From: a bacterium UBP6_UBA1196 | Lineage (GTDB): Bacteria; UBP6; UBA1177 | Direction of reading: 5' to 3' | NCBI GenBank assembly: GCA_002310035.1 | Contig: DBYC01000051.1 | Coordinates: forward strand, 1-54,666 | DNA length: 54,666 nt | Part shown: piece after piece, positions 7,134-54,666 of the stretch | Position numbering within the stretch: position 1 is the stretch's first letter | How the letters are laid out: each line of letters begins with the position of its first letter | The notes under the pieces: generated by a model | Seen by the model: the letters and a program-made list of their open reading frames with translations, nothing else | Told to the model about the DNA's origin: nothing | Database searches by the model: none | Program-made: the position numbers and the translations under genes

Positions 7134-7147
7134 CGAGGAGGATTGAA

Positions 7148-7690
7148 GTGTCAAGAATAGGAAAAATGCCTATCACATTGGGCGACAAAGTGAAGGTTAC
7201 AGTAAAGGACAACCTGATCACAGTTCAGGGTCCCAAGGGAACATTGGAGAGAACCATTCACCCTGCAGTCAGTGTCGAGATCGACGGTTCGGTCCTGCAC
7301 GTTACCAGAAAGAATGACGAAGCTGAATCGAAGGCGCTGCACGGTCTTTACAGAGTTCTTATCAACAATATGGTCACCGGCGTTACCACAGGCTTCTCAA
7401 AGACGCTTGAAGTCAAAGGTACAGGCTACAAATTTGATATGAAGGGTGACAAAATTGAATTTTCTTTAGGTTTTTCTCATCCGGTAGTGATGGCATTACC
7501 TAAGGGGATTTCGGCAGAAGTTAGTAAAACCGGTCTTGAAATTACGATCACGTCGGCAGACAAGGAGCTTCTCGGCGATTTCGCTGCGAAGGTCAAGGCT
7601 CTTCGTCCGGTCGAACCCTACAAAGGAAAAGGTGTTTTCTATAAGGGTCAGACCATCAGAAGAAAAGCTGGTAAGGCTGCAGGCAAGTAA
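7148..7690 (+). CDS. rplF: 50S ribosomal protein L6
   Basis: The ORF track starts at 7127. The GTG at 7148, preceded by GAGGAGG, gives (M)SRIGKMPI..., the canonical L6 N-terminus. Confidence 0.95.
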
Positions 7691-7701
7691 CGGAGGATAA
7701 C

Positions 7702-8061
7702 ATGAGACCAGATATTAAGAGAAAAAGAAGAATCAGAAGAAAAGCTGCTATCAGAAAAAGAATCTTTGGGAATCCCGAAGCTCCGAGACTTTCTGTTTTC
7801 AAAAGCAACAAACACATCTATGCACAGGTAATCGACGATGTAGCAAGGATCACACTGGTTTCTGCATCATCCGACGAGAAGGGTTTTGTAAAGCCCGAGG
7901 GTGATAAGAAAGCTGTTGCGAAGAAGGTCGGTGAACTTGTTGCTGTAAGATGCAAGGAGAAGGGAGTAGAGGCCGTTGTTTTTGACAGAAACGGTTATCC
8001 TTTCCACGGCAGAGTTAAGGCACTTGCCGAGGCTGCAAGAGAAAATGGATTAAATTTCTAA
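7702..8061 (+). CDS. rplR: 50S ribosomal protein L18
   Basis: 119 aa, ...[19 protein letters not shown]... [22 protein letters not shown]. Confidence 0.96.
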
Positions 8062-8076
8062 GGTTTGGGAGTCATT

Positions 8077-8601
8077 ATGAAAGATACAAATAAGCCGTTG
8101 AATTTGGAAACAAATGAATTAAGCGAAAAGCTGGTTTACGTCAACAGAGTTGCAAAGGTCGTAAAAGGCGGTAAAAATTTCAGCTTTGCTGCACTTATGG
8201 TTGTCGGCGACGGCAACGGTGCGGTCGGCATCGGACTTGGAAAGGCGAGAGAGGTTCCCGAGGCAATCAGAAAGGGTGTTGCCAGAGCGAAGAAAAATAT
8301 CAGACAGATCAACCTTCTTCGCGGAACGGTTCCGCACGAGATTACCGGTGAATACGGTGCAGGAAAGGTTATCCTTCGTCCGGCATCGGTAGGTACCGGA
8401 GTTATCGCAGGATCTGCAGTCAGAGCAGTTTTAGAGGCTGCGGGCGTAACCGACATTCTCTCGAAGAGTATTGGTTCCAACAATCCTCACAACATGGCAA
8501 AGGCAACCTTGAACGCTCTTCTCAACGTCGAGGGTCTTGAAAGTGTTGAGGCTAAGAGAAACGTTGGTGTTAAAGATTATCAGTTGAAGGAAAAGGAGTA
8601 G
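8077..8601 (+). CDS. rpsE: 30S ribosomal protein S5
   Basis: [35 protein letters not shown]. The ATG at 8077 has a GGGAG RBS; the ORF track starts at a TTG at 8065. Confidence 0.95.
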
Positions 8602-28238: not shown

Positions 28239-29483
28239 CTATTCGTTGTCGCCGGTCTCCGGTTCGTCGGTGTCGGGTTCAACTGTATCGTCGGAATCAG
28301 GCTCAACTGTATCGTCGTTCTCGGGATCAGTCGGTTCGTCGGAATCAGGTTCAACGTTTTCGTCGTTCTCTGGTTCGTCCGTGCTGTCGCTGTCCGGCTG
28401 AGTGGGATCGTCGTCTGTTTCTGGCTCTTCTTCATCACCGTAGATCTTGCAGACATCGTAGCCTTCCGGTAGCTTTTCGTAAGCCAGAGGTGCGCCGAAC
28501 GGATGGTCGCTGAAGAACTGGATCATCGTCGCCGTCGTCGGGCCAGCAACTGTATGCGAGCCGCCATGGTTGCAGAGGATGACGTCGTGGCCGAAGTCGT
28601 GCAGATACTTCGCAGCCTTGTTTGCCATGATGTTGAAGTCGATGCTGAAAATAGGCGGCATTCCCCATGTGTCGACGCCTGCCTCGCCGGAGACTAGGAC
28701 CTGCGTGTATGCTGAGTGGTCAGCCTCCATCTCGGGCCACTGGATCAATGAACCTACAAGACCCATGCTGTCGTCGAGGGATGCAACGCTTTCCGGATCG
28801 GAGAAGTATGCGCCGGAGTAGGTGAACGCGCTGGCAACCTTTTCAGATCTGAGCTGAGCAATGCTGTTTGCGGTGATTGCGCCGGCGGAGAAGCCTGTAA
28901 CGTGGATGTGTTTATCGTCAACAGTCCATTTTTTGCCGATGCAGGCGAGAACTTCGTCGAACATGTCCGCTTCAGCGCTTCCGTCTGTGATGTTGAGCAT
29001 ATCCCATTCAAGTCCCTGCATTGTCTGGAGGCCGAAACGGTTGCTGTCGGATTCCGGAACTACAAGGATGAAGGGCATGGTCTCGTTGTCGACAAGACCG
29101 GAGAGGAATGAATCGAAGTTGTCGGCCGTGTCGCCGTAGCCGTGCCATGCGAAGAGTACCGGGATTTTTTCCATCGACTCCGCATTCTCCGGCAGACGGA
29201 GTATGAAGTGTCTCGGATATTCGCTGACCATCAGGTTTTTGTTCATGCCGTCAGCAACATTTTCGCAGTCGAGCGGTTCGACCGGTTCAGGCTCGGCAGG
29301 GTCAGTGTCAGGCTTTACAACAGGTTCTTCGTCGTTTTCAGCGTCGGAATCGGACGGTTCCTCATCAGAAATCTGATCTGTGTCGTTTTCCGGTTCCTCC
29401 TTTGGGTCGTTTTTTTTGTTGTCTCCGCAGGAAACAAGCAGAAAAAGTGATGCAGCAAGAACTGCCAAGAATAATTTTTTCAT
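28239..29483 (-). CDS. Lipoprotein alpha/beta-hydrolase (PHB-depolymerase/esterase-like) flanked by acidic low-complexity regions
   Basis: MKKLFLAVLAASLFLLVSCG lipobox. PVLFAWHGYGDTADNF and HVTGFSAGA (GxSxG nucleophile elbow). D/E/P-rich N-terminus and a C-terminal tail of ~35 acidic residues with repeated (D/E)(T/N)VEPDSD units. Confidence 0.65.
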   Translation of the reverse strand: MKKLFLAVLAASLFLLVSCGDNKKNDPKEEPENDTDQISDEEPSDSDAENDEEPVVKPDTDPAEPEPVEPLDCENVADGMNKNLMVSEYPRHFILRLPENAESMEKIPVLFAWHGYGDTADNFDSFLSGLVDNETMPFILVVPESDSNRFGLQTMQGLEWDMLNITDGSAEADMFDEVLACIGKKWTVDDKHIHVTGFSAGAITANSIAQLRSEKVASAFTYSGAYFSDPESVASLDDSMGLVGSLIQWPEMEADHSAYTQVLVSGEAGVDTWGMPPIFSIDFNIMANKAAKYLHDFGHDVILCNHGGSHTVAGPTTATMIQFFSDHPFGAPLAYEKLPEGYDVCKIYGDEEEPETDDDPTQPDSDSTDEPENDENVEPDSDEPTDPENDDTVEPDSDDTVEPDTDEPETGDNE

Positions 29484-29765: not shown

Positions 29766-30782
29766 ATGAAAAATTTTAAAATTTGTTTTGCTGCTCTGGC
29801 GGTGGCGCTCCTTCTTTTGTCATGCGGAGTTGATAAGCCTGATATGGGCGGAGGCTCCGTGTCGCCGGACCGTGATCATTCAACTGATTCGGATATCTCA
29901 GAGGAGCCGGATCAGCCTGAAAGCAGCCGTCCGGAAAACGATCCTGACGCCGATAAGGAGGATGCCGGATACGGATCCCGCGATGAAGACAACGCTGAGT
30001 GGCGGGAAGATGCGGATCCTATTGAAAGCGAGGATCCTGATTCCACGGAAGATGCGGATCTTGTCGAAACCGAGGATCTCGATTCTCTGGAAGAAGCGGA
30101 TTTTGACGATTTTGAGGAGCCGGATCTTTCAGAAAATGAAGACTCGGATATTTCGGATGGCGGCGATCCGGATCTCCACGGCGAGGACTCGGACGCTGTT
30201 GAAGATCCTGACGAATCCAGTGATTCGGACTTTTCCGAATCCGGAGATGAGGATGAAGATAACGGAGTGGTGGGACCTCAGTTTGCCAACGGAGATATGC
30301 AGAACTGGGTCGACGGTGCTGTCACGGGCTGGAAAAAGAGCGAGGGGGCGCTTGCGGCGCTGACTTTGGAAAAGGAGGATACCGGCGGCGGAAACTTTGC
30401 GCTAAAGGTGACTCAGCCGCAGAACAGCAAAAATAAGCCGGGATTCGAATCCGAAGAGTTTGAGACTTCGTTGGAGAGTCCGCTCCCGCAACGGATAGAC
30501 TTCAGGGTGAAAACCGGCGCTGTTTCCAAGATCGCTGCAGAGCTTGTATGCGGGGAAACAAGTTTGAAATATAAATATATTGATGAAACAAAAACATTCG
30601 TAAAGTCAGGGAATTATTCGTACAATCAAATCGAGCTCCCCTCCTGGACGACTCTCTCGATAGAATTCGGCGAGGAGATGACATCCGAATTTTGGCAGGG
30701 GCAGCTCTGCAGGCTCTCCTTCAAGACAGGCTCCGGTCTGGATTTTGACGCCAGTTTTGATGATTTTAGGATAATCTACTGA
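29766..30782 (+). CDS. Lipoprotein with a long D/E-rich linker and a C-terminal beta-rich (possibly carbohydrate-binding-like) domain
   Basis: The ATG at 29766. MKNFKICFAALAVALLLLSCG lipobox, about 150 aa of acidic repeats (EDPDS/EDLDS), then a globular ~160-aa C-terminus. Confidence 0.55.
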   Translation: MKNFKICFAALAVALLLLSCGVDKPDMGGGSVSPDRDHSTDSDISEEPDQPESSRPENDPDADKEDAGYGSRDEDNAEWREDADPIESEDPDSTEDADLVETEDLDSLEEADFDDFEEPDLSENEDSDISDGGDPDLHGEDSDAVEDPDESSDSDFSESGDEDEDNGVVGPQFANGDMQNWVDGAVTGWKKSEGALAALTLEKEDTGGGNFALKVTQPQNSKNKPGFESEEFETSLESPLPQRIDFRVKTGAVSKIAAELVCGETSLKYKYIDETKTFVKSGNYSYNQIELPSWTTLSIEFGEEMTSEFWQGQLCRLSFKTGSGLDFDASFDDFRIIY

Positions 30783-42837: not shown

Positions 42838-43692
42838 CTAAACCGTATCTACGAAATTTCTTTCGACTAAATTGAAAACGAGGATACCGCCGAAAAGCAG
42901 GATGAAAGTCGTCGCGATGCTGATCCCATATTCGGCAAAACTCGGCATTCCGGTTGAGAAAAATGCGTGTTTGAAACCTTCAAGAACAGGAACGACGGGG
43001 TTTAGCATATAAAGCGAGCGCCATTTTTCAGGCACCATCGAAAGGGGGTAGACAATGGGAGTCGCATACATCCAAAGCTGCACCGCAAAAGTGACTAAGT
43101 GCGCCATATCACGGTATTTTGTGGTAAGAGAAGTGACGATGAGTCCTACTCCGAGCCCGAGCATCGCCATCTGAAGGACAAAGAGCGGAACAGCGAGGAG
43201 CGCCCAGCTTGGGGAAACGGCGGAACCCGCGATCCAGTAGGCAAGCAGCATTATCAAAAAGAGCAGAAACTGGATCGAAAACTTCACAAGCGCCGAGATC
43301 ACTTGGGAAACCGGCAGCGCAAGCCTCGAAAAATAAACCTTTTTAAAAATATAGGCGTTGCTCACAAAAGTGTTCGAAGTCGAAGTGAGACATGACGAAA
43401 AGTAGTTCCAAAGAATGATCCCGTTCATGTAGAAAAGGATCTGCGGCACGCCGTCAGTCGGGATTTTCGCAATGTTTCCGAATACTAAGAGAAACATCAA
43501 AGTCGTGAATATCGGCTGGATGAAGAACCAGAGCGGCCCCAGGATCGTCTGCTTGTAGACTGAAGTTATGTCTCTTTTTACGAACGATGTTACCAGGTCG
43601 CGATACTGCCAAAGTTCGCGCAGATTCAGACGCAAAAGCTTGTCTTTCGGGGTTATCACCGTCGTCCAGTTTTCGTTTTTTGATCCGCTCAT
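42838..43692 (-). CDS. ABC-2 type transporter permease (Wzm/TagG/KpsM-like)
   Basis: 284 aa, ...LWQYRDLVTSFVKRDITSVYKQTILGPLWFFIQP... plus 6 TM segments. No cognate ATPase gene adjacent. Confidence 0.8.
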   Translation of the reverse strand: MSGSKNENWTTVITPKDKLLRLNLRELWQYRDLVTSFVKRDITSVYKQTILGPLWFFIQPIFTTLMFLLVFGNIAKIPTDGVPQILFYMNGIILWNYFSSCLTSTSNTFVSNAYIFKKVYFSRLALPVSQVISALVKFSIQFLLFLIMLLAYWIAGSAVSPSWALLAVPLFVLQMAMLGLGVGLIVTSLTTKYRDMAHLVTFAVQLWMYATPIVYPLSMVPEKWRSLYMLNPVVPVLEGFKHAFFSTGMPSFAEYGISIATTFILLFGGILVFNLVERNFVDTV

Positions 43693-43795
43693 TGGTCACC
43701 ATCAAAAAATCAAAAGCTGAAAAGTATATAAAATTCGCAGAGACGGGCAAATTTTTGGAGTGTTGAATGTAAAAACAGGGGAGGTGACGGAATTT

Positions 43796-44593
43796 TTAAA
43801 AATTTTTCAGAGAATCTTTTAAAGGTTCAAAAAAACGGGAAAGTTTTTTGCTCACAGTGGATTTATCGACATTGTATTTCTTAACGATTTCCTTAAAGTC
43901 TGGTTCGTAATCATGATCTGCGGAATAAGCATCCAAAAGTTCTTTGTTTATGAAAGTATAATTCATCAAAATTTCAGTATTGAAACCATACAACAGCAAG
44001 TTTTGAAGAGTGGCTTGATAAAGTCTGCGATAAACCTCTTCAATATTAAAATCCAGCTTTAGGAGTAAAACTGTAAGGATTTCGGAAAGCATCTGATCAG
44101 GATGCTTTTTCCACTCTTTTTGAATTTTCGGAATAAGTTTCTGCAGGTCTTCTTTGATAAGGCTTTTCCCCAGCGGATCAGTGTCACTGCTTTCTATAAG
44201 AGTATCTAGAATGGAAAATGTTCCGCCTTCTTCATTCGTCTTTTCGAGTCCTGTGGCATTTGCATGTTCCTTGGCCTCTTCGCCTTTTGCGGTGTTTATC
44301 GCATTGTTCAATGACTTGAAAAGGTATAAGTGAAACTCCTCTTTTGAACCGGAAAAGCTTTTCAGACAATCTATGACCACTTTGTGAACTTCATCGACAT
44401 ATTCGCAGTAAGTGGATTTTTTTATCTCTTTAACAGTCAGGTCTGAATCCTGGGATGCTCCTTTTGGTTTTAATACCGCCTGGATGATTTTCCATGTAAA
44501 GCCTTTTATCGCGGCGTCAATGTTTTCACCGCGATCAACAACTCTTTGATATTCTTCATAAAGTTTATTGATCATTTCAAAATTTTTTTCCAT
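43796..44593 (-). CDS. Sigma-70-like / HTH transcription-factor-like protein (uncharacterised)
   Basis: 265 aa. The N-terminal helical region ends in EEFHLYLFKSLNNAINTAK (region-2-like). The C-terminal IVKKYNVDKSTVSKKLSRFFEPLKDSL looks like a sigma region-4 HTH. The start lies 2 nt after the stop of the upstream CARF-like gene. Confidence 0.35.
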   Translation of the reverse strand: MEKNFEMINKLYEEYQRVVDRGENIDAAIKGFTWKIIQAVLKPKGASQDSDLTVKEIKKSTYCEYVDEVHKVVIDCLKSFSGSKEEFHLYLFKSLNNAINTAKGEEAKEHANATGLEKTNEEGGTFSILDTLIESSDTDPLGKSLIKEDLQKLIPKIQKEWKKHPDQMLSEILTVLLLKLDFNIEEVYRRLYQATLQNLLLYGFNTEILMNYTFINKELLDAYSADHDYEPDFKEIVKKYNVDKSTVSKKLSRFFEPLKDSLKNF

Positions 44594-44595
44594 GA

Positions 44596-45216
44596 TCAGT
44601 CCTCGAACAATGCTTCGATCGTCTTTATTGCACGTTCGCTGCTTGAAGTCTCGATCATGTTGGTAAAGTTCTGCATAAGATAGAGCGGAGTGATGTCATA
44701 GATCATTTGCGAGCCTTCTATGATCTCGTTGTTTTTGAATTCAACTTTGGAATAAACGATGTAACCGATGGAACAATCGAAAAATTTCTCTGCAAACTGA
44801 CACACTGTGAAAAGCAGAAATGCCAAAGGTTTCGGGCCGTAAGTAGTATCGGCATAGATTTCGGCATCATGCTCGAGTTCTTTGAGGATGGCCTTGAACA
44901 TAAACTGAAAATTTGTTTTCGACATATCGAACGCGCTCGGAAGTATTTTATAAGTGATTTTTGCTCCGACCTTGTTGAAATGATCGAGTTCTTCCTTAAA
45001 AAGTTTTGCGTTGTCGCTTCCTGCGTTTTCACCTCCTTTTGTCTCAAGAAGGAGGACTTTGACTTCATCATCGGCTTTAAGCGAGTTCGCAAGAGCAGCC
45101 GTCGCAGCAAACTGAATAGGTTCTTTAATTTCAAGCAAAGCGTTCCCGTCAACGGGATAAACGCATTTTTTTAAATTTCCTTTAAGCGGAAGTGTTACAA
45201 ATAAGATTTTTTTCAT
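44596..45216 (-). CDS. Minimal CARF-like (Csx/TM1812-type Rossmann-like) domain protein, not CRISPR-linked in this window
   Basis: 206 aa. KKILFVTLPLKGNLKKCVYPVDG (beta1 plus G..Y..Y pattern). VKVLLLETK. AD-TTYG-PKPLAFLL at aa 123-127 sits in the position of the CARF DxTHG motif. GYIVYSKVEF....MIYDITPLY resembles the YGAFE...P(I/V)xDL(T/S)P segment of Csx1/Csx2-type CARFs. GAGGTG RBS. Confidence 0.45.
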   Translation of the reverse strand: MKKILFVTLPLKGNLKKCVYPVDGNALLEIKEPIQFAATAALANSLKADDEVKVLLLETKGGENAGSDNAKLFKEELDHFNKVGAKITYKILPSAFDMSKTNFQFMFKAILKELEHDAEIYADTTYGPKPLAFLLFTVCQFAEKFFDCSIGYIVYSKVEFKNNEIIEGSQMIYDITPLYLMQNFTNMIETSSSERAIKTIEALFED

Positions 45217-45300
45217 TTTTTCACCTCAAATAGACAAATAAATCTGTCTGTTTTTATAAGTTTGTAAAATTTTCACAATAAAAGAACTGTTTACACTGTA

Positions 45301-45330
45301 TATAAGCTGCGAAAAACCGGAGAGTTGACA
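45301..45330 (-). promoter_or_regulatory. Island motif copy a (TATAAGC-N16-GTTGACA on +), 85 nt upstream of the CARF-like gene
   Basis: tataagctgcgaaaaaccggagagttgaca. Same length and end-blocks as the copies at 46937, 52138 and 54309. Confidence 0.6.
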
Positions 45331-45363
45331 AAAATTTTGTAAAAACTTCATAATCGCATGGTT

Positions 45364-46902
45364 TTATTGATGTTTTTCTTTGGCTTTGTCCATTTTCGCC
45401 AGCTCTAAAGTGAGATATATCAGGTATATCTGGATCGCAAAAGCGTGCTTTTCAAAGAAATCCTCTTCCTCGTTTTCAGAGCAGTATAGAAAACTCATGA
45501 ATTTTTTCAGATGATCAAACTCGTCTTTGTCTAGCACATCCTCGTTGTAGATGTTAGTTTTGCTGATTTCATCCGGATCTAGAGCGAGATTTTCGGTTTC
45601 TTCCTCAAAATTGAAAACTTTATGCCACAATTCTTCGTTGTTTGCCGCATTGATGTTCAGAGGATCCGTGATTTTTTTGAAATAATGATTCAGAATTATG
45701 ATAAGTTTTTCCGTATTTTCTTTCTGAGCAGGATCTTTTTTGAGTTCGCAGAGATATTTGTAAGAATCGAAAAAAGCCTGAAAGACCAACATTTTCCAAT
45801 TCAATATTTGTTCGTATTTGAGGGAATCCGTGTATTGATCACTATATTTGTCGAACAGTTTATATACGGCGACATTCGCACCTAAGTGCGTTATCCTGTT
45901 GCGTTCAGGATACAAAAACTTGTGATTCAGCGCGCTTCTATTCGTAAAGCGGTCGTCTTTGGTGGCTTGGATCGGCTTCCCCAATTTAAACGAAGGGCTT
46001 TTGTTTAACCATTCCATTTCTGATTCTTCAAAAAATTTGCAGGTTATTTCCCTGCGGAATTTTTCATTTCCGGCAAAAAACATCTGTGTAAAGTCCGGAT
46101 CCTTGAAACCGAAATCGAGTTCTTTGAGTTTTTCGAGGTTCGTAAGGACCTTTGTTATTTCTTCATGTGCTTCCGCCTGAGAATAATTCGATGTTTTTCT
46201 GTTCGGGAAGATCTTGAGGATAGATTCCTGATGTTCCCTTACAAAATTTATTACGTTGATGAGTTTTTCCCTCGGAACAGTTTCGTTTTCGGGCGGCATG
46301 AAATTCGCCAGAATGCGTAGAACGCCTTCATTCGCCTTGAAATAGTTCCCTTCGAATTTGGTAAAATCGATGTCGGTGAAGGGATCTTCTTTTAAAAAAC
46401 CGAGATCTTTATTGATTTTATTGAGTATTTCACTCTGTTTTTTAGGCAGATACCATGATTTTTCTTCTAAAGCCGAATCAAAAAGTTCCTTGATTTTCGA
46501 TTTCCGCTCTTCGGAAGCGAAAAATGTTCCGGCTTTGCAGATATCACGCAGCAGAAAGAAGAAAACTCCCTGCAAAAGCCGCATGTCTTCCTTAAAATTT
46601 TTTCTGCTGGTCTTTTTGATATTTTTAGGTCTGAATATCGACAAAACGGCCGAAGCCTTTTCCTCAATCGTTTCACCAGCTATGATTTTGCTTGTTGCGT
46701 CAAAAATATTCTGTTCCACAACAGCCTCAGGTGCATGAAAGATCTTTTTGAGGTGATCAATATTCAAACCTTTGAGTGAGCAGTAAAGATCGGAAACTTT
46801 GTCGGGATCATCGCTGAAGCTGCCGCGAAGAGCCTCTTTCTCCGCCGTGATTTCTGTAATTATCTTATCAAGTTCTTCTTTTGATCTCATGGCATTCTCC
46901 AT
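45364..46902 (-). CDS. Uncharacterised protein with an HEPN-like RNxxxH motif (candidate RNase effector)
   Basis: 512 aa (the alternative ATG at 46890 has the better GGAG RBS). ...NRSALNHKFLYPERNRITHLG... carries RNRITH at aa 334-339 (nt 45886-45903), preceded by a second Rx4H (RSALNH, aa 322-327). Otherwise predicted to be mostly helical. Confidence 0.4.
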   Translation of the reverse strand: MENAMRSKEELDKIITEITAEKEALRGSFSDDPDKVSDLYCSLKGLNIDHLKKIFHAPEAVVEQNIFDATSKIIAGETIEEKASAVLSIFRPKNIKKTSRKNFKEDMRLLQGVFFFLLRDICKAGTFFASEERKSKIKELFDSALEEKSWYLPKKQSEILNKINKDLGFLKEDPFTDIDFTKFEGNYFKANEGVLRILANFMPPENETVPREKLINVINFVREHQESILKIFPNRKTSNYSQAEAHEEITKVLTNLEKLKELDFGFKDPDFTQMFFAGNEKFRREITCKFFEESEMEWLNKSPSFKLGKPIQATKDDRFTNRSALNHKFLYPERNRITHLGANVAVYKLFDKYSDQYTDSLKYEQILNWKMLVFQAFFDSYKYLCELKKDPAQKENTEKLIIILNHYFKKITDPLNINAANNEELWHKVFNFEEETENLALDPDEISKTNIYNEDVLDKDEFDHLKKFMSFLYCSENEEEDFFEKHAFAIQIYLIYLTLELAKMDKAKEKHQ

Positions 46903-46936: not shown

Positions 46937-46966
46937 TATAAGCGGTGGAAAAATGAGAAGTTGACA
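46937..46966 (-). promoter_or_regulatory. Island motif copy b, 35 nt upstream of the HEPN-motif gene and abutting the stop codon of the preceding gene
   Basis: tataagcggtggaaaaatgagaagttgaca. Confidence 0.6.
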
Positions 46967-47485
46967 TTAAAGTGGCAAATCAGCAAATGGGTACTTTTTT
47001 TGATAGGCTTCGAGTGTTCTGTTGATACTGCGTTTAACACCGTTAAGCGGATTCCAAACAGATTCTTCTGTCGCATTTATCGTTTCATCATAAAGAGCAT
47101 AGGCGATAGGCATGTTGTTGGATCCTATAAAAACAAAGAACAGCTTTAAATTGATTCGTCGTCCTTTTCGATCCATTTGTGCATCGAATTGCTTAAATAC
47201 TGTTCTGTAATCTTTCAAAAAGTCAACAGATGATTTTTCTATATCCTCTTTGCTTGATTTATAGCGGAGAACAAAACAATGAATCCTGTCATTCTGAAAG
47301 TAGCCCCCGACAAAACTATCCCCGTCAAAGTCTTCAGTAATTTGTTCCCCTGATACGCATTTTTCGTAAACATTGAAAGCATCTTTCTGGCTGTTTGAAT
47401 AAATATAAGGGAAATGAAGATTCTGTGCCCGAACAGCAGCAAAAACGAACAACACTGCCAAAACCGCCAGAAACTTCTTTAACAT
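46967..47485 (-). CDS. Secreted hypothetical protein (172 aa)
   Basis: The ATG at 47485 follows GGAGGG. Signal peptide MLKKFLAVLAVLFVFAAVRAQ. No known motif. Lies 81 nt downstream of mkoB with no copy of the island motif in between. Confidence 0.55.
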   Translation of the reverse strand: MLKKFLAVLAVLFVFAAVRAQNLHFPYIYSNSQKDAFNVYEKCVSGEQITEDFDGDSFVGGYFQNDRIHCFVLRYKSSKEDIEKSSVDFLKDYRTVFKQFDAQMDRKGRRINLKLFFVFIGSNNMPIAYALYDETINATEESVWNPLNGVKRSINRTLEAYQKKYPFADLPL

Positions 47486-47566
47486 TTTTCCCTCCATGAA
47501 AGTTTAGATCCGTGATCAACAAAATTCATGCAAGAATAGTTCAAATATGTGATTTGTAAAGGGATT

Positions 47567-48904
47567 TTAGTTGAATTTTGCGATCTGCTTTAAAATCTCA
47601 TCTTGGTTCATGTTGATCGTTGATGTTTCGCCCCTTGCGTCTTTCTCGTCACCGCCGCCGAAACTTAACCAGTTGAAACTTCCCATTATCATGAAATCAT
47701 CGTCGCAGATAACGATCTTGGAGTGGTCGTCAGTTTTTATCAGGCGGAAGTTGTCTTTGCCGAGCGAGTCAAAAAATTTCTGCGATTCTTTGTCGATACC
47801 GATTTTGTCAAACCTGTTTCGCGGTTTCATGCCGTACTTGACTGTAACGCGCACACCTCTTTTAACGGCATTTTCTATATACTCTTTATAGATTTGAAGT
47901 GTCCGCCAGTTGATCCACGGAGATTGGATGCAGATGCTTCTTTTTGCATTTTCAAGGACATAGATGAAGTGTTTTTTGTGTTCGTCAACCTCGATGGTTT
48001 TCCCGTCAGAAATGGAAATTTCCTCTACCGGCTGGATTTTTTCTTTAATGATTTCAGGAGTCGTCTCATTGAATTTCTCAATATTTTTTTCAAATATCTT
48101 CACGCTGTTCGGTGAAATATTTTCGTAGTCGAATTTCTGTTCGTTTAGAATACGGTCAAACAGTTGCGTAGCCTGGAAATCCTCTTCGTAATCTTTGTTG
48201 AGGACAAGGAATCTTTCATTTCTTTCTTCATCTTTATAGAACAAACAGATGTATCTGCGGAAGAACTTGCCGGGCGCAACTTCAAATATATCCGTTATAT
48301 CGTTGCCATCCTGCAGATTTTCTATAACGACCTGCCGGAGGGTCTTGTTGTCGGAAAATTCATCATCCAGATATTCCGTTCTCGGGCGCGATTTTACATA
48401 AGGTTTGAATTCTATGGCACCGTTTCTTGACTTTTGATCCAGTTTATTTGTGTCCTCCAAAACTGTTCCGAATATTCCGTCAAAATAAAGCCAGGCAGAA
48501 GCGTTTTCCGTGACCAGTTCCGTTTCTTTTTCCAAGATCTCCTTTCCTTCTTTGGAAAGTTTCAGTTCATCCTGCCTTATATCATTCTGCTTCAGATAAC
48601 CTTTTGTCGTGATGTCTGCCAGAATAGTGTCCAAGATCTCTTCGTCCAGTTGAGTGATTTCCTGCAGATATGAATAGGAATCATCGTCTTTGACAGTTTC
48701 AAGGAACTGTATGGTCTTCAACACGGATATAATCACCGGGTGTATCTTCCGTTCTTTTGTAACTGCATACATCACTTTTGTTCTGTATACCGGGTAGTCT
48801 ATTTCGCGGGCGTCATACATTGCAAAGCCTTCGTAATGGTCGCTGTATCTGTGGGTAAGCAGTTCAAGATCCAGCTTGATAGCGTTATTTTGCTTTTCAG
48901 TCAT
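47567..48904 (-). CDS. mkoB: PLD-family (single HKD) nuclease, Mokosh type I MkoB-like
   Basis: 445 aa. C-terminal ...TDDHSKIVICDDDFMIMGSFNW carries the HxK(x4)D motif (nt 47702-47725). Only one HKD, as in Nuc/Zucchini-type dimeric nucleases. 8-nt overlap with the upstream helicase gene. Confidence 0.75.
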   Translation of the reverse strand: MTEKQNNAIKLDLELLTHRYSDHYEGFAMYDAREIDYPVYRTKVMYAVTKERKIHPVIISVLKTIQFLETVKDDDSYSYLQEITQLDEEILDTILADITTKGYLKQNDIRQDELKLSKEGKEILEKETELVTENASAWLYFDGIFGTVLEDTNKLDQKSRNGAIEFKPYVKSRPRTEYLDDEFSDNKTLRQVVIENLQDGNDITDIFEVAPGKFFRRYICLFYKDEERNERFLVLNKDYEEDFQATQLFDRILNEQKFDYENISPNSVKIFEKNIEKFNETTPEIIKEKIQPVEEISISDGKTIEVDEHKKHFIYVLENAKRSICIQSPWINWRTLQIYKEYIENAVKRGVRVTVKYGMKPRNRFDKIGIDKESQKFFDSLGKDNFRLIKTDDHSKIVICDDDFMIMGSFNWLSFGGGDEKDARGETSTINMNQDEILKQIAKFN

Positions 48905-51900
48905 GTTTTCCTCCCAATTTGATCACTTCATAAGACTCTTTGTTTTGATTGATATATTCGATTATGCTTTTGAACGGATTGTCTTTGTCGGAGACTTGGG
49001 CTTGATAAAGAAAGTCCATGTCGCCCACGATGACCAGCAGTTTTTTTGCTCTCGACAGAGATACGTTGAGACGTTTTTCATCCGCGATGAAGTCTATCTT
49101 CGCTTTGCCTTTCAACTTTCCGGATCTTACGCAGTCATAGATGATAATGTCCCTGTCGCTTCCCTGGAAGCTGTCGACCGTTCCGATATCTATGCTGCAA
49201 TCTGCAAAATTTTTCTTCACGGCGAGTTTTTTGCGCAATGCCGCCGCCTGAGCCTTGTAGGGCGTAATTATTCCGATGTCGTAGTTAGTTCCGCAGTTTT
49301 TCATCTCCGTTTGGATCTGCCTTAATGTCCTCTCGATAACAGATGCATTGCAGCGGTTTATTTTTCCGGTTCCTTCCTGTTCGTCTTCCTTGTCGGACAG
49401 CATTCCGGTGTCGTACCAGACGACGCTTGATCTGAAGCTGAGAGAATGTTTCTTTTGAGCGTTTACGGCATCGGTTGTCTTCAGTTCGCCGTTGTAGAAG
49501 GGTATGTTGTACAGATTGCAAATGTCGCGTGCAGAGCGGTAGTTGTGGTTCAGGGTATGAAGCAGATTGGGCCTGTCTGCATTCTGAATACGCTCAAACA
49601 TCCGCTGGAAGAACGAAGTCTTGGCTTCATCCCTGTCTTTGATCTTTTCGAGCACATCGTCATCAATGACCGGAGCAAGCTGTTTGTGGTCACCGACAAG
49701 TATCAGCTTTCTCGCTTTTATGCACGGAACGAGCAGTTCGCTAAGAGTGGCTCTTCCGGCTTCGTCAACGATCACAGTGTCAAAAACGATCTCTCTGAAA
49801 CTTTTCCATGATGAAATACCGACCAAAGTGCCGAAGACGAGTCTGATGTTCTGCGTGAAAAGCGCAGCCAGTTCAGCTTCTTTGTTTTTTTCTCCGTTTT
49901 TGCTGCTGTTTCCCATTTGAGAAGTTATGTGCTGCAATTGTTCCCGGAAATCTTTCTGCAGTTCCTGCATCTTGCTTTGTATTATCCAGTTAGGGTGCGA
50001 TACGGGATTTCCGTCTATGTGCTTTATGTTTTCCTGAATCATTTTGTTCAGCACTCTGTGCGGCATGTAGTTTTGCGCTGTTTTGCTGATTTTGGTCTCA
50101 TCGTTCCCGATGCGGAGGATCTTGTCTTCAATGCCGCAGATCTTTTCAAGGACATTGTCTACAGCCTGATTGCTCTGGGATGCCACAAGTATTTTCTCAT
50201 GGGGCCGCGTTTTTAAAAGCTGGGTAACTATCTCGGTTATAGTCACGGTCTTTCCTGTTCCGGGAGGGCCCTGCAATACCATCAGTTCGCATTTGTCATC
50301 CAGAGACAAGGCTTTACGGACCGCAAGCTGCTGATTTTCGTCAAGGCTGGTGTTGTAGAACTTTTCTACATCGATCAGATCGTTTTTTATGAATTCCTGA
50401 GGCCGGTTTATCTTTCTAAGGAAGTTGTGAATGTATACGTTGCCGTTCTGCAGCTGATCAAGAGCAAAGTCTTTTTTGTTCCAGACGGCTTCTTCCGCCT
50501 GATAATCATAGCTCAGAAAGTATTCCGAACCCTTTTCCAGATAGAATCCTTTGTTTTGATCATCAGCACATTTTGCGACTTCGTATTTCCCCACTTTTAC
50601 AGTTACGGAAAAGCCCGATTCAGATCTCTCAACGACACCTTTCAGTGCATCGTCAGAATCCAAATCCTCCTGCAGGATGACGTTCTGTTTCTGCTTGAAA
50701 TCCTTTTCGGAACGGCTGTTTTCTGTTTCTGTCTCATTTTTTGCCGCATTTTCTTCAGCCTCATCTTTGTCTATTACATATTCCAATGTCAATGTGTCGT
50801 CGCCGCGGTTCAATTCCTTCAGGATCACCTTTCTGGTGTTCTTTTTTTCATCTATAGTCCTTTTTTCCGCTTTCAGCAGTTCCTCTTCAGTTGCAATGCT
50901 TTTGGAGTCAGTTTCATAACGCTCGTTTTCGCGTTTTTTCTGCTCGTACAGCTCTTTTAATTTCTCGATCACGCTTCCTGCATCATCGCAGTTCCAGTCC
51001 TGTTCGTTTGGGCCAAGTATTTTGAACATATCGTCTGTCGAAAGCCCGTATTTCTGCAGGAGTTCCGTTTTGGAAGGACTTTCGAGAATGCCAAAGCAGA
51101 AAAAATAATGACTGTTTTCTTTTGCAGAACAGCAGAATATCAGATCTCCGATAGCGATCTTTATTTCATCGCGGTCGCTTTTGTCTTTACCAAACTCCAA
51201 ATAAGCGTGGGAATCTTTGATTCTTTTCCTGATGTCATCTTTTTCGGCATACAGTTCGCAATCGTGGTTTTCCCTCCATTTCTCAAGCACGCGGCCGCCT
51301 ATTTGAATGCCGAAAGTCTTGTTGGGCATGATCTCTCTCAGCAAATCGTTAAGTTTTCTGCGGACATCAAGCAGTTTTATGCGTTCTTCAGGATTAGCGT
51401 TCAGCATTGCCTTTATGATCATGAGCAGTTCGGCATTCGTTTTATCAAGCTGCTCTTTATGTTCGGCAATACGCCCGTATATTTCTTCCAGAGAATCGAA
51501 ATCTTGGTAAGAGTCCGAGAATGTAGAGGAATCAAAATGCGACCCAAGCAAAAGGTCGAGCATACAAAGCCCGAGCGAGTATATGTCGCTTTCTTTGCGG
51601 CATTCGTTCTGAGCGATTTGTTCCGGAGCATAGAAGCGCTTGTCCGGTGAACTGCTCATCATTGCATAGATGTAGCATCTGCCGAAATCGAGCAGATAGG
51701 CATGATCCTCTCTGTCGATCAAGATATTCTTAGGATTGATATTGCCGTGATAAAAGCCTTTCTGGTGAATATATTCAACCGCATCGACAATCTGCTGGTA
51801 GCACTTTATGAGCGAAACATAGTTCGAACCGAACCAGTCAGGCTTCAATTCGGAATATCCTTCGTCGAAATTCCGGTCGACAAAATAGAAGTTTCTCTCA

Positions 51901-52094
51901 TCCTCTTCTATCTTAAGATTGCTGATGTTCTGGTGTGAAACCAGGTTGATGTTTTTCGCGATATTGGAGTATTTCCCGCTTGCCGTGCTCTTGGCCACGA
52001 TTTCTATGCGGTAATCGCAATCGTTGTATCGCGCGATTTTGAGAGATTTTGATTCTTCACTGATGACCTCGTATTTCCCTAAGATTTTAGTCAT
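48897..52094 (-). CDS. mkoA: Ser/Thr-kinase-like domain fused to an Upf1-like SF1 helicase (COG1112/AAA_11-AAA_12), Mokosh type I MkoA-like
   Basis: 1065 aa.
- N-terminus: ..YIHQKGFYHGNINPKNILI...LLDFG...FYAPE (kinase subdomains VIb/VII/VIII).
- C-terminus: GPPGTGKT (nt 50247-50270), VIVDEAG, LVGDHKQLAPV, NYRS, TPYKAQ, VDSFQGSDRDIIIY, RLNVSLSRAKKLLVIVG. Confidence 0.8.
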   Translation of the reverse strand: MTKILGKYEVISEESKSLKIARYNDCDYRIEIVAKSTASGKYSNIAKNINLVSHQNISNLKIEEDERNFYFVDRNFDEGYSELKPDWFGSNYVSLIKCYQQIVDAVEYIHQKGFYHGNINPKNILIDREDHAYLLDFGRCYIYAMMSSSPDKRFYAPEQIAQNECRKESDIYSLGLCMLDLLLGSHFDSSTFSDSYQDFDSLEEIYGRIAEHKEQLDKTNAELLMIIKAMLNANPEERIKLLDVRRKLNDLLREIMPNKTFGIQIGGRVLEKWRENHDCELYAEKDDIRKRIKDSHAYLEFGKDKSDRDEIKIAIGDLIFCCSAKENSHYFFCFGILESPSKTELLQKYGLSTDDMFKILGPNEQDWNCDDAGSVIEKLKELYEQKKRENERYETDSKSIATEEELLKAEKRTIDEKKNTRKVILKELNRGDDTLTLEYVIDKDEAEENAAKNETETENSRSEKDFKQKQNVILQEDLDSDDALKGVVERSESGFSVTVKVGKYEVAKCADDQNKGFYLEKGSEYFLSYDYQAEEAVWNKKDFALDQLQNGNVYIHNFLRKINRPQEFIKNDLIDVEKFYNTSLDENQQLAVRKALSLDDKCELMVLQGPPGTGKTVTITEIVTQLLKTRPHEKILVASQSNQAVDNVLEKICGIEDKILRIGNDETKISKTAQNYMPHRVLNKMIQENIKHIDGNPVSHPNWIIQSKMQELQKDFREQLQHITSQMGNSSKNGEKNKEAELAALFTQNIRLVFGTLVGISSWKSFREIVFDTVIVDEAGRATLSELLVPCIKARKLILVGDHKQLAPVIDDDVLEKIKDRDEAKTSFFQRMFERIQNADRPNLLHTLNHNYRSARDICNLYNIPFYNGELKTTDAVNAQKKHSLSFRSSVVWYDTGMLSDKEDEQEGTGKINRCNASVIERTLRQIQTEMKNCGTNYDIGIITPYKAQAAALRKKLAVKKNFADCSIDIGTVDSFQGSDRDIIIYDCVRSGKLKGKAKIDFIADEKRLNVSLSRAKKLLVIVGDMDFLYQAQVSDKDNPFKSIIEYINQNKESYEVIKLGGKHD

Positions 52095-52137: not shown

Positions 52138-52167
52138 TATAAGCGTCGGAAAACTTCCGAGTTGACA
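52138..52167 (-). promoter_or_regulatory. Island motif copy c, 44 nt upstream of mkoA
   Basis: tataagcgtcggaaaacttccgagttgaca. Differs from copy d at only 2 of 30 positions. Confidence 0.6.
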
Positions 52168-52200: not shown

Positions 52201-53946
52201 TTATTGGTTATTTCTTACACATACAACTTTGAGTTTATAGTCGAGAATGTAGGGAAAATCGGCAGAATGCGCTCCTCCGAGATCGTATGCGTCAACAAGC
52301 ATCGTCATGTGACCGACTCTGGCGTTCAAGAAGTCAACGCTCCAGGCTTCTTTAGTGTTTTCCGGGTCGAGAGTTGACGACCAGAAAGCCTCTTTTGATT
52401 TGATTTTGCTGAATTTGGGATCGTTTATTTCTTCCAAGAGTTGTTTTCGGGTTTCTTCTTCGAGCTCGTAGTATTCCGTTTTTGCCGTCAGAGTGTTGAT
52501 TTTACCGCACCCGTTGCAGTCTTTGCTCCAGCATTTTTCATTAAGGCACTGTCTGTTTTCGCTGATTCTGCACCTGCCTCCCGCTTTGGTTTTGTCGCAG
52601 TTTTGAATGAGCGTGCGCAATTCATCGATGTTTGGCAGGCGCCAGTCGGAATGGTTGTTTTCCGCAAGGTTCGAGCAGTAATTTTGTGCTTCTTCCCATG
52701 TCATCGGATCGGCTGCAACGGATGACCACTTCAAAGATTTGGGATTCGGTAATGATTTCTCAGGTTTCCTTTTAGGTTTGACCTTGAAATCGTCATCTTT
52801 TCTGTCACGGACGCAGATCACATCTGTATCGTGGTTTATCACCGGCACATAAAGAGCGAGGTCGAGCACCGGACTGTATGTCCAGCCGAACCGGTCAGGT
52901 CTCGCATGAGAGCCGTCCCATATTGAGTTCGCCGTGAGAGCCCTTATCCCGTGAGTGCTTCTTGCAGCAAGGAAAAAACTTTCGTTCCCGTCTTTTTCCA
53001 GTTTTTTGGTATCTTTGTTCAGCGATCTCAATTCTTCAATCGTCGGCTGGCGCCAGTCGTCGAAGCCTCCTTCTCTTAAAAATTCGCAGTATGCATAGGC
53101 ATCATGCACCCCGAAAGTATCGTCCACGCAGTCACGATACAGGTATCCGCAGGGAATTTCCCGTTCTTCGTCTTCTTCACAGATCCAGCTTTCATCGCAA
53201 AGTTTTTTTGCTGCGGAGTACATAATGTGCCGCTCTGCAAGCAGCGTTGCTGTGTAATTTTTCTTTTTCGACATCGTGCTTTCAGACCACTGCAGTTTGT
53301 CAGGATCAAGTGCTTTTTCCATTTCAATTTTTTTCTCTGCGGCAAAGTCTTTCGGGGAAGATTCCCTGACGCATGCAACATTGCAGAGATCATACTTACA
53401 CGGACGGCACGGATGCCAGTCAGGATCGGCAAGGCAGCTTTTTCCGCTAACCATCCCGTAACCGTTAAACCAGTTCTGGTTATTTTCCTTTTCGTTAAAA
53501 GACCAGAAACAGCTGTCGTAAAGGTAGAATCCGTTGACATAAGTCCGCAATGTGTCCGTCTCTTTTTCTGTGTAGAATATGCCGCTTCCCTCCTTGAATC
53601 CTGAACAATCTTTCATTATTGATTTCAATTCCTCGGTTGTCGGCGCTCTCCAGTCGGAAAAACCGTCTTCGCGCAGCTCTTCGCAGTATTCTGCGATGGT
53701 GTCGTAATACATCGGTCCGGGAGAGGGCTGCGACCACATCAGATTCGGTTTGGCATCGGTTGTTACACTAGACTGCGTCTCGTGCCGTATGACTGGATCG
53801 GGATCATTTTCAGGTTGAATCAGAATTATACTTTCTGTAGTCGCCTGATTTGTTGATTCCTCTTTTTCTTCTTTTGAAGAACAACTGCAAAGCACAATAC
53901 AGAACACAATCACACAAAGGTGTAAAATCATTGAAAGATCTTTCAT
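52201..53946 (-). CDS. Lipoprotein with three DUF1566 (Lcl C-terminal-like) domains
   Basis: MKDLSMILHLCVIVFCIVLCSC lipobox. Three signatures: FSDWRAPTTEELKSI, FDDWRQPTIEELRSL, HSDWRLPNIDELRTL. Ends ...VVCVRN. Confidence 0.75.
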   Translation of the reverse strand: MKDLSMILHLCVIVFCIVLCSCSSKEEKEESTNQATTESIILIQPENDPDPVIRHETQSSVTTDAKPNLMWSQPSPGPMYYDTIAEYCEELREDGFSDWRAPTTEELKSIMKDCSGFKEGSGIFYTEKETDTLRTYVNGFYLYDSCFWSFNEKENNQNWFNGYGMVSGKSCLADPDWHPCRPCKYDLCNVACVRESSPKDFAAEKKIEMEKALDPDKLQWSESTMSKKKNYTATLLAERHIMYSAAKKLCDESWICEEDEEREIPCGYLYRDCVDDTFGVHDAYAYCEFLREGGFDDWRQPTIEELRSLNKDTKKLEKDGNESFFLAARSTHGIRALTANSIWDGSHARPDRFGWTYSPVLDLALYVPVINHDTDVICVRDRKDDDFKVKPKRKPEKSLPNPKSLKWSSVAADPMTWEEAQNYCSNLAENNHSDWRLPNIDELRTLIQNCDKTKAGGRCRISENRQCLNEKCWSKDCNGCGKINTLTAKTEYYELEEETRKQLLEEINDPKFSKIKSKEAFWSSTLDPENTKEAWSVDFLNARVGHMTMLVDAYDLGGAHSADFPYILDYKLKVVCVRNNQ

Positions 53947-53971: not shown

Positions 53972-54265
53972 TTATGCAGCGCAAAGAAAGCGATATTCTT
54001 CGCGCCAGAGTTTCTTATATTCTAAAGCGATGATCTTGTTCCGCTTCTGATCGTAAGCCTGTTTTGAACAGCAGCCTTTCTTTGATTTCTGGCTTGTCAG
54101 GTGGAAGCAGCCGCACTCTTTGCAGAAATATTTTCTATGCGGAATCTTTTTTGCTCTGTTGCCGTGATGCTTCGCGCCGTTGATAGCGTTTCCCGCTTCT
54201 CTTTCTGTGTAACAGATCTTTCCCTCGCTTTCACATCTGATCTCTCTTTCGAACTCGTCTTTCAT
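53972..54265 (-). CDS. Small Cys-rich zinc-ribbon-like protein (97 aa)
   Basis: C-x7-C ... C-x2-C (RCESEGKIC...FCKECGCFHLT), basic. 25 nt upstream of the DUF1566 lipoprotein gene. A paralogue lies at the window end. Confidence 0.55.
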   Translation of the reverse strand: MKDEFEREIRCESEGKICYTEREAGNAINGAKHHGNRAKKIPHRKYFCKECGCFHLTSQKSKKGCCSKQAYDQKRNKIIALEYKKLWREEYRFLCAA

Positions 54266-54296
54266 CTTTCCCTCCTCTTGTTGTCAATCAAACTGC

Positions 54297-54440
54297 CTAC
54301 ACAACATATATAAGCGGTGGAAAACTTCCGAGTTGACAGAAAACTTTAACAAACTCCTCTTTTTCTTCTTTTGAAGCGCAACAGCAAAGCATACAGAGTG
54401 TTAAAACACAAAGGTACGAAATCATGAAAGATTTTTTCAT
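54297..54440 (-). pseudogene. Remnant of a DUF1566-type lipoprotein gene (signal peptide plus SKEEKEE only)
   Basis: MKKSFMISYLCVLTLCMLCCCASKEEKEE parallels MKDLSMILHLCVIVFCIVLCSCSSKEEKEE of the 581-aa protein. DNA homology stops near 54354, and the frame runs into motif copy d and a stop codon. Confidence 0.6.
54309..54338 (-). promoter_or_regulatory. Island motif copy d, 44 nt upstream of the zinc-ribbon gene
   Basis: tataagcggtggaaaacttccgagttgaca. Confidence 0.6.
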
Positions 54441-54468
54441 TTTGTTTCCTCCTGTTTGGGTTGTTATA

Positions 54469-54666
54469 TCATGCTGCGTGAAGAAGATAGCATTCTTCGC
54501 GCCAGATATCTTTGTTTTCACGTTGGCGAAGTTTTTCTTTTTTGTAGCGGTATTTTTCCTGCAGCCTCTCCTTTTTATGGGAGGCGGATTTACAGGTCAG
54601 GTGATAATGACCGCAATCTTTACATGGATACATTCTCTTGGGAATCTTTTTTGCTCTGTTGCCGTG
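54469..54666 (-). CDS. Paralogue of the small zinc-ribbon-like protein (5' end lies outside the window)
   Basis: Reads HGNRAKKIPKRMYPCKDCGHYHLTCKS...DIWREECYLLHAA*, collinear with HGNRAKKIPHRKYFCKECGCFHLTSQKS...KLWREEYRFLCAA* of 53972-54265. Confidence 0.7.
   Translation of the reverse strand, partial: HGNRAKKIPKRMYPCKDCGHYHLTCKSASHKKERLQEKYRYKKEKLRQRENKDIWREECYLLHAA

Follow-up and report, generated by a model that had tools for sequence, protein, structure and literature searches.

The 54,666-nt stretch of DNA analysed here, contig DBYC01000051.1 of assembly GCA_002310035.1 from the UBP6 bacterium UBA1196 (hereafter the window), carries at 43.8-54.3 kb a segment that is best explained as a low-GC defence island around a two-gene regulator, in which the gene of a stand-alone CARF sensor is translationally coupled to that of a dedicated, divergent sigma-70-family factor. 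On balance we lean towards a reading in which the CARF protein senses a nucleotide and gates the sigma factor, whose regulon would drive a variable set of defence genes, here including a Mokosh system. A preliminary description of the same DNA had combined this pair with an adjacent gene for a 512-aa protein into one three-gene module. Its open reading frames (ORFs), motif positions and spacings were reproduced exactly when coordinates were re-read from the window: all three ORFs lie on the minus strand, 147 nt separate the 512-aa and 206-aa ORFs, and the CARF stop and the sigma start are 2 nt apart. GC content dips to 37-40% at 44-49 kb, and an ABC-2 permease gene (42838-43692) forms the edge of the island.

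A stand-alone CARF protein paired with a sigma-70-family factor

The 206-aa protein (44596-45216, minus strand) matched the PADLOC profile PDLC01820 'CARF2--CARF' at full length (1.5e-72, residues 1-205 on model positions 1-204 of 205), and 18 further CARF/Csx1/Csm6 profiles (19 in total) also matched, with Csx1 PDLC01431 at 1.7e-37. The protein had been proposed to be a stand-alone CARF from landmarks read by eye, and these matches bear that out and place it in a CARF2/Csx1-like clade, a family that is already catalogued because a dedicated PADLOC profile exists for it. The match to TIGR02221 (cas_TM1812) reached 2.5e-12 and 47.3 bits, under the cut-off of 76.25; judged by score, the protein is a relative of this equivalog outside its membership. 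The ligand-site signature D-x-T-[HY]-G-x-[KR] is present as D123-T-T125-Y-G127 (44836-44850, minus strand) followed by P-K129. Among 22 CARF homologues of 31-76% identity, drawn from CRISPR-linked and CRISPR-less clades alike, T125 and G127 do not vary and conservation of D123 is at least 90%. A PDB sequence search with the CARF family returned spurious LRR matches only and no sequence relative. The 206-aa protein matched generic CARF/Csx1 profiles only and none of the ring-nuclease families.

The 265-aa protein (p265; 43796-44593, minus strand) was assigned to the sigma-70 family, in agreement with the sigma-like regions noticed earlier. As a single sequence it matched TIGR02937 (sigma70-ECF) at 8.7e-4 over positions 18-163 of 165, under the cut-off. 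Family profiles gave clearer results against the PDB: all top 21 matches of a profile of 16 homologues (A3) were RpoD/SigA (best 2.9e-4), and a profile of 35 partner proteins from CARF loci (A9) found SigA at 3.4e-11, its top 54 matches all being sigma factors. The A9 alignment covers sigma regions 2 to 3.2, corresponding to residues 173-309 of B. subtilis-type SigA, and further weak, independent profile matches for p265 agree with the assignment. The region-4 helix-turn-helix (HTH) signal was weak, with Pfam Sigma70_r4 at 7e-3 in two of the 16 members and a Myb-like HTH at 1.9e-5 in five. An hhalign comparison of the sigma family with one E. coli RpoE, entered as an approximate query sequence, was not significant (1.5%), the aligned part being region 2. 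Region 3 is retained in the wider sigma family, whose best scores are to sigmas of groups 1-3. The window protein and its closest relatives lack about 68 aa of a region-3-like segment present in relatives of 285-350 aa, and therefore have a layout of region 2, linker and region 4 like that of extracytoplasmic function (ECF) sigmas. They have also gained a 22-aa insert ahead of the C-terminal HTH compared with P0041-P0050 and the L001/L002 homologues, and by sequence comparison this loss and gain represent recent remodelling within the family.

A one-genome-per-species scan with a CARF alignment yielded 38 loci, which together with metagenomic contigs and the window made up the 43 CARF loci examined (42 in a first survey). 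Spirochaetes, among them Treponema of the rumen or gut, account for most scan loci, with a few from Clostridiales, Bacteroidales, Desulfovibrionaceae and Christensenella. One of the Treponema is an isolate, T. saccharophilum DSM 2985, whose locus (L031) has CARF and sigma genes together with MoxR-vWA genes and genes like those of the 176-aa and 512-aa proteins. The sigma gene lies directly 3' of the CARF gene, at a gap of -32 to +23 nt, in 40 of the 40 informative loci; the remaining three are contig ends and uninformative for pairing. This adjacency spans 33-90% CARF identity and very different contexts. Because the sigma gene follows the CARF gene in every informative locus, the conserved unit is, by gene order, the CARF-sigma pair and not the trio. 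The tight coupling read from the 2-nt gap was thus upheld by the survey, whereas the notion of three genes as one conserved module was ruled out by it: the 512-aa gene accompanies the pair in just nine of the 42 loci of the first survey.

One clade of the pair (L030, L032, L037 and L038) is linked to type III-D CRISPR-Cas. The gene order in L037 is CARF, sigma-like, Cas6, Cas10, Cas7/Cas5 of type III-D, Csx19, Cas7 and Csx1 (CARF-HEPN), and its 545-aa Cas10 keeps GGDD. In L030 a Can2-like CARF nuclease, Cas1 and an array of 45 repeats precede CARF and sigma. The partner protein of this clade is homologous to p265 (hhalign 95.9%, E 6e-9) and bears a sigma region-3.2-like 'SFDAPVGDGDEKVTLGDFIEDK'. 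Since Cas10 of these relatives keeps GGDD, and since the same CARF residues are conserved in the CRISPR-linked and CRISPR-less clades, cyclic oligoadenylate (cOA) is the most likely candidate ligand of the CARF protein.

The term CRISPR-less, applied to the genes in the preliminary description, is accurate for the window but not for its relatives, in which the pair heads type III-D CRISPR-Cas loci. Neither array scans of the 54,666 nt nor tblastn of the window with type III-D cas proteins and two nucleotide cyclases from related loci gave a match, which agrees with the claim that these 54 kb hold no cas gene, array or cyclase; profile-library scans covered the island ORFs and part of the ORFs in 1-38 kb. 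With no array and no cas gene found within that scope, the window pair belongs to no type III cas operon or array there. No Rfam family matched the window and no tRNA was found in it.

Several features were seen around these loci. Positions 1-323 of L037 consist of four 81-nt tandem units, each combining a CRISPR-repeat-like segment (…GACCTGCTTTAAGGGATTGCAC, like the L030 repeat) with near-identical 'spacers'; they represent a degenerate array close to the leader or else an array in which spacers have been duplicated. In L003, a 467-aa protein with a class III adenylate/guanylate cyclase domain (6939-8342, minus strand) and several ankyrin-repeat proteins are encoded within a few kb of the CARF, sigma and 512-aa genes. 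Outside the island, the window has in-frame tandem repeats of 24 nt and 42 nt in coding sequence (28260-28376 and 30005-30101), which probably encode acidic low-complexity protein segments.

A promoter-like motif shared by four operons

The window contains four exact copies of TGTCAAC-N16-GCTTATA, compared with 0.00 expected from 100 shuffles. All four lie on the minus strand, which is the gene strand, between 45.3 and 54.3 kb and 35-85 nt upstream of starts, and the window's 45 kb of housekeeping DNA contain none. The motif has the geometry of a promoter, with GTCAAC as -35, a 17-nt spacer and CTTATA as -10, an A/T-rich tract upstream and a conserved TTTTTC[GA] inside the spacer. For the sigma-70 assignment it thus supplies a candidate cognate promoter (-35 and -10 about 17 nt apart), as a sequence pattern only. 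The first copy (45301-45330) is located 85 nt upstream of the CARF start and is presumed to be the autoregulatory promoter of the CARF-sigma operon. The second (46937-46966) abuts the stop of a 176-aa gene, 35 nt upstream of the 512-aa ORF, a placement repeated in L007. The third (52138-52167) is intergenic, 44 nt upstream of the mkoA start, and the fourth (54309-54338) lies 44 nt upstream of a 97-aa ORF. The preliminary description did not include this motif, which connects the pair with Mokosh and two more operons; its presence before four operons suggests that the pair may switch on the whole neighbouring island, Mokosh included.

The block was first revealed by aligning the CARF upstream regions of seven close loci, where it is kept whatever gene precedes. 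In 14 of 42 loci, some of them distant, CARF is preceded by a -35-like GTCAAC. Across the 43 loci (690 kb) the motif gave 40 hits, 39 of them on the CARF strand, versus 2-3 in reversed or shuffled sequence, and these hits concentrate immediately upstream of CARF and right after the sigma stop. The genes downstream of it in related loci are CARF, 512-aa, MoxR, radical SAM, C8, C34 and Lcl_C genes. A relaxed form, GTCAAC-N15-17-(C)TATAAT-like, stands upstream of CARF and MoxR genes in distant loci, and GTCAAC-N17-CTAGAT upstream of an operon of radical SAM and long-form 512-like genes in L042. Where promoters contain GTCAAC, the C-terminal helix of the sigma reads K-[ST]-x-A-S-[RK], and the type III-D clade has both a different C-terminal helix and no GTCAAC, which suggests that promoter and sigma co-vary, roughly though not rigorously.

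Additional elements surround these promoters. The CARF promoter motif is flanked by 22-nt direct repeats at 45258-45279 and 45333-45354 (minus strand: ATTGTGAAAATTTTACAAACTT, ATTATGAAGTTTTTACAAAATT), each containing an imperfect A/T-rich inverted repeat with a TTTACAAA half-site, and L032 of the type III-D clade has a perfect palindrome, TTTACAAAT-GAA-ATTTGTAAA, at the equivalent site; these repeats and the palindrome may be operators. Right after the sigma stop in the window, 43760-43789 (minus strand) reads CGTCACCTCCCCTGTTTTTACATTCAACA and resembles a decayed motif copy, at the place where L001, L002, L004 and L005 have an intact motif ahead of the next cargo gene. It may mark an eroded island edge, because the next window gene is the housekeeping ABC-2 permease. 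The 5' leaders of C8 and Lcl_C genes (window 54266-54308; L001, L002, L004 and L005) have in common GTGTAGG(C/A)(A/C)GTTTGATTGAC/AA, placed between the -10 element and the ribosome-binding site; this stretch may act as a regulatory RNA or be bound by a protein.

Mokosh, other cargo and the 512-aa family

The neighbouring Mokosh system named in the preliminary description was recognised with high scores. MkoA (48897-52094, minus strand) is a 1065-aa fusion of a Ser/Thr kinase and a superfamily 1 helicase (PADLOC 9.3e-201; Pfam Pkinase, AAA_11 and AAA_12), MkoB (47567-48904, minus strand) is a 445-aa nuclease of the phospholipase D family (PADLOC 4.9e-58; Pfam PLDc_2 7.2e-9), and the two genes are adjacent with an 8-nt overlap, as in Mokosh type I. 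They are followed by a 176-aa protein (46967-47497, minus strand; cluster C6) with a signal-peptide-like N-terminus, MEGKMLKKFLAVLAVLFVFAAVRAQ, which matched no family in Pfam, PADLOC, NCBIfam or PHROGs. C6 homologues occur in eight of the nine loci carrying the 512-aa family, and the order Mokosh, 176-aa gene, 512-aa gene, CARF, sigma in L007 is identical to that in the window. Upstream, the lipoprotein operon begins with a 97-aa Cys-rich small protein (53972-54265, minus strand; cluster C8) that matched PHROG phrog_1820 at 8.6e-10, a family without assigned function. C8 recurs beside the pair in L001, L002, L005, L006, L007 and L025, with the motif upstream in L001 and L005. The second product is a predicted lipoprotein of 581 aa (52201-53946, minus strand) with three Lcl_C (DUF1566) domains (Pfam 1.2e-32), also matching a PHROG family without assigned function, whose homologues (C13) have the same motif upstream in L001, L002 and L004. 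A 74-aa ORF at 54297-54521 (minus strand) has a lipoprotein-signal-like segment (…LCMLCCCASKEEKEEF) resembling the N-terminus of the 581-aa protein (…LCSCSSKEEKEES); from this resemblance it is probably a truncated Lcl_C lipoprotein paralogue upstream of the fourth motif copy.

The cargo beside the pair is variable and, as annotated from sequence, mostly defence-type. MkoA-like helicases were found in 10 CARF-sigma loci and pairs of bpMoxR AAA and vWA proteins in 11-13, and type I restriction genes and an AAA-ATPase/PD-(D/E)xK protein also flank the pair in some loci. AbiD/Abi_2 HEPN proteins with the motif LRNAIAH accompany it in six (L016, L021, L022, L024, L035 and L041). In five of these the gene immediately follows sigma, and in L021 it is encoded close by on the other strand. 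Given this arrangement, signal-dependent control by the sigma may extend to a classical Abi gene.

The 512-aa protein (45364-46902, minus strand) is best explained as one of several interchangeable cargo genes outside the sensor core, and it looks like cargo because it has a promoter copy of its own. Its true start is likely M5 (MRSKE...), as most homologues begin MRSKE or MKSKE. A word-indexed search found 31 homologues, without a Pfam domain and named only 'hypothetical protein', and exhaustive profile searching extended the family to 65 representative clusters (50% identity). Many members are 750-900 aa long (also 1248 and 1560 aa) with the 512-like region C-terminal; nine long forms (672-1560 aa) searched with Pfam for an extra N-terminal domain gave no match.

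The protein had been described as a HEPN-motif protein on account of R334-N-R-I-T-H339 (45886-45903, minus strand). Conservation of this candidate catalytic site is firm: E333, R334, N335 and H339 are invariant among 23 close homologues; only six columns (D263, G265, L330, R334, H339 and Y493) do not vary in an alignment of 28 sequences that extends to 18% identity and in which N335 is at least 90% conserved; and among 20 distant homologues read, most have [DE]-R-[NH]-x3-H and all 20 have the R-x4-H core. The second Rx4H noted earlier, RSALNH, is present 12 residues upstream but is not conserved among the 23 homologues. The R-x4-H of the family is, from this conservation, near-certain to be a functional site. 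The HEPN assignment itself found support in the motif alone. Neither HEPN nor any other family in Pfam, PADLOC, NCBIfam or PHROGs matched the protein, its narrow and broad alignments had no match among PDB sequence profiles, and hhalign gave 1% probability against the AbiD/Abi_2 HEPN proteins of sister loci. The AlphaFold2 (AF2) model is confident overall (pLDDT 84, pTM 0.86), and Foldseek of it against PDB and BFVD returned nothing with E <0.1 or TM >0.2. Residues 333-342, between a strand and a short helix, are its sole low-confidence internal stretch (pLDDT <50), so that the motif sits in a poorly modelled loop. A HEPN-like RNase is our best guess for this protein, and a doubtful one.

Long forms of 750-860 aa (L042, L044, L045, L047 and L001) are regularly preceded by a Fer4_12/radical SAM gene. 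The pair is present beside both genes in L042, the long forms of L044 and L045 have neither a CARF nor a sigma gene within 10 kb, and the L047 contig is too short to tell. This distribution suggests an independent two-gene module of radical SAM and R-N-x3-H proteins.

Mechanism, rival explanations and known systems

From the computed identities of the two proteins, their strict pairing, the type III-D linkage of a sister clade and the number, strand, position and enrichment of the motif, we infer three steps: that the sigma factor recognises the motif, that the CARF protein gates the sigma factor, and that the ligand is cOA. In the proposed mechanism the CARF would bind a nucleotide second messenger, most likely cOA made by a type III CRISPR-Cas system elsewhere in the genome, and binding would alter the availability or activity of the partner sigma, the CARF in the simplest version being a ligand-gated anti-sigma or co-factor. 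The sigma would then direct RNA polymerase to TGTCAAC-N16-GCTTATA promoters, switching on its own CARF-sigma operon in positive feedback together with the cargo operons mkoA-mkoB-p176, the 512-aa gene and the operon of the small protein and the Lcl_C lipoprotein. The 'CARF-gated sigma switch' offered as an example in the preliminary description is thus the reading we favour, with guarded confidence. More tentatively, and at a probability we place below even, the stand-alone CARF may act directly as a ligand-gated anti- or co-sigma within a portable cOA-responsive cassette that puts the otherwise independent innate systems Mokosh, AbiD, MoxR-vWA and the R-N-x3-H family under transcriptional control by type III CRISPR sensing; adaptive immunity would then license innate immunity via a private promoter code.

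Several observations weigh against the favoured switch. The window sigma is without the region-3 segment, and the AF2 model of p265 is poor (pTM 0.48), with Foldseek matches to it uninformative, so the sigma call rests on sequence profiles. No type III CRISPR-Cas, cyclase or array that could supply the signal was found in the window itself. NrdD/NrdG, deoxynucleoside kinase, methyltransferase and lipoproteins in some loci are not obviously defence genes. CARF upstream regions of the type III-D clade lack GTCAAC and have inverted repeats instead, which are more typical of a dimeric repressor, and the motif could be readable by another factor. If it were read by such a factor or by a housekeeping sigma, as a shared operator or cassette-boundary element, the pair would not control Mokosh and the other neighbours. 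The link between p265 and the motif is indeed one of pattern, and the TTTTTC[GA] spacer block and the A/T-rich inverted repeats at the CARF promoter could be operator sites. We give this little credence, as the motif has the -35, 17-nt and -10 geometry at promoter distance from starts and always on the gene strand, is missing from the housekeeping DNA and follows the pair through unrelated contexts. Autoregulated promoters upstream of alternative-sigma operons are, moreover, the rule among ECF sigma factors.

Other roles for the CARF protein were also considered. Small stand-alone CARF proteins are typically ring nucleases (PMC8284326), and by analogy this frequent role also counts against a sigma-gating CARF: the protein might be a ring nuclease or cOA sink that ends or damps type III signalling, with an independently regulated sigma merely co-transcribed. 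An off-switch would be sensible in L037, which already has a classical Csx1 effector, but such strict adjacency (40/40, the genes overlapping or nearly abutting) is better explained by a functional complex than by incidental co-transcription, most loci have no nearby CRISPR-Cas to buffer, and no ring-nuclease family was matched; we regard this as quite unlikely. Unlikely too, though a little less so, is a split Csm6/Csx1 system in which the CARF, once it has bound cOA, switches on the 512-aa protein in trans, this protein being an abortive-infection HEPN RNase and the sigma a parallel output. The invariance of R334 and H339 across the whole 512-aa family fits this idea, as do the close and some distant 512-aa homologues near the pair and the bona fide HEPN genes of the AbiD loci. 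It is contradicted by the rarity of the 512-aa gene beside the pair, by long forms that occur with a radical SAM gene and without CARF or sigma, by the failure of HEPN profile, fold and hhalign comparisons, by a motif that is in a low-confidence loop and not at a confident helix N-terminus, and by the cargo-like promoter copy of the gene. The least probable reading, to which we assign very little weight, is a phage or mobile-element cassette that brings its own sigma, with the CARF as an anti-CRISPR degrading host cOA. Points in its favour are the lower GC of the island, the PHROG matches of the 97-aa and Lcl_C proteins, and the nucleotide-metabolism and methyltransferase genes mentioned above in related loci. 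However, the CARF and 512-aa families are both absent from 2.9 million IMG/VR viral contigs, and for this reason such an origin was rejected as the main explanation; furthermore, there was no sign of an integrase, a structural gene or a tRNA, type III-D loci harbour the pair between array and cas6-cas10, and the cargo of the pair consists of defence systems.

Among described regulators, the CARF-sigma pair resembles at the output step CalpL-CalpT-CalpS, in which cyclic tetra-adenylate (cA4) acts through a SAVED-Lon protease and a cleavable anti-sigma to release an ECF-like sigma in a type III CRISPR-linked system (PMC11229360). There a cOA sensor controls a dedicated sigma for a transcriptional response to infection, as is proposed for the pair. 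The pair is nevertheless outside Calp membership: it has a CARF and not SAVED, no Lon protease and no recognisable CalpT-like anti-sigma (SAVED, Lon and CalpT-like domains had no match among the six island proteins scanned), its sensor and sigma genes are directly coupled, most of its loci are CRISPR-less and beside innate systems, and its candidate regulon promoter can be read from DNA. Csa3, a CARF fused to a winged-HTH transcription factor and stimulated by cA4 (PMC8284326), likewise exerts CARF-dependent transcriptional control of defence genes, but as one polypeptide with an operator-binding winged helix, whereas the separate CARF described here has a sigma-70-family partner predicted to reprogramme RNA polymerase. 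RtcR-like CARF-ATPase-HTH regulators, predicted infection inducers at the head of CoCoNuT/restriction superoperons (PMC11090510), resemble the pair as CARF regulators at the 5' end of variable multi-system defence arrays. They differ in that the present CARF is CARF2/Csx1-like, stand-alone and paired with a sigma-70-type factor, with no AAA+/sigma-54 co-activator. Lacking SAVED-Lon, anti-sigma, fusion and AAA+/sigma-54 co-activator alike, the CARF-sigma system does not share the defining features of any of these three classes.

The likeness to Csx1/Csm6 lies in the Csx1-type (CARF2) profiles to which the 206-aa CARF is closest, the R-N-x3-H of one neighbour and the AbiD HEPN proteins after the pair in sister loci; the difference is that no HEPN is fused to the CARF and that the 512-aa protein has no detectable HEPN homology or fold. 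With ECF sigma/anti-sigma systems the pair has in common a co-transcribed arrangement with translational coupling, an apparently autoregulated promoter, a small local regulon and the domain layout of the window sigma. Unlike in ECF pairs, the partner gene is upstream of sigma and encodes a soluble CARF, not a membrane or zinc-binding anti-sigma, and the wider sigma family keeps region 3 and its affinity to group 1-3 sigmas. Our literature search found no description of a stand-alone CARF-sigma pair or of a promoter regulon belonging to one; a mention in the CARF classification of Makarova et al. 2020 (NAR) is possible.

Transcriptional outputs of cOA signalling are known from few cases, namely Csa3 and the protease-dependent CalpL/T/S. 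The widespread 512-aa family, with no functional annotation, an invariant R-N-x3-H and frequent radical SAM partners, is in addition a candidate for a new effector. The model lends itself to direct testing, since the positions of the sensor, the sigma and four promoters are all known to the nucleotide. If it is true, the pair would form a minimal two-protein path from a nucleotide signal to the reprogramming of RNA polymerase, with a promoter code, readable from DNA, that defines the regulon in each genome. It would also be the first sign that Mokosh, AbiD-type and MoxR-vWA systems can be inducible members of a signal-controlled island and not constitutive stand-alone systems.

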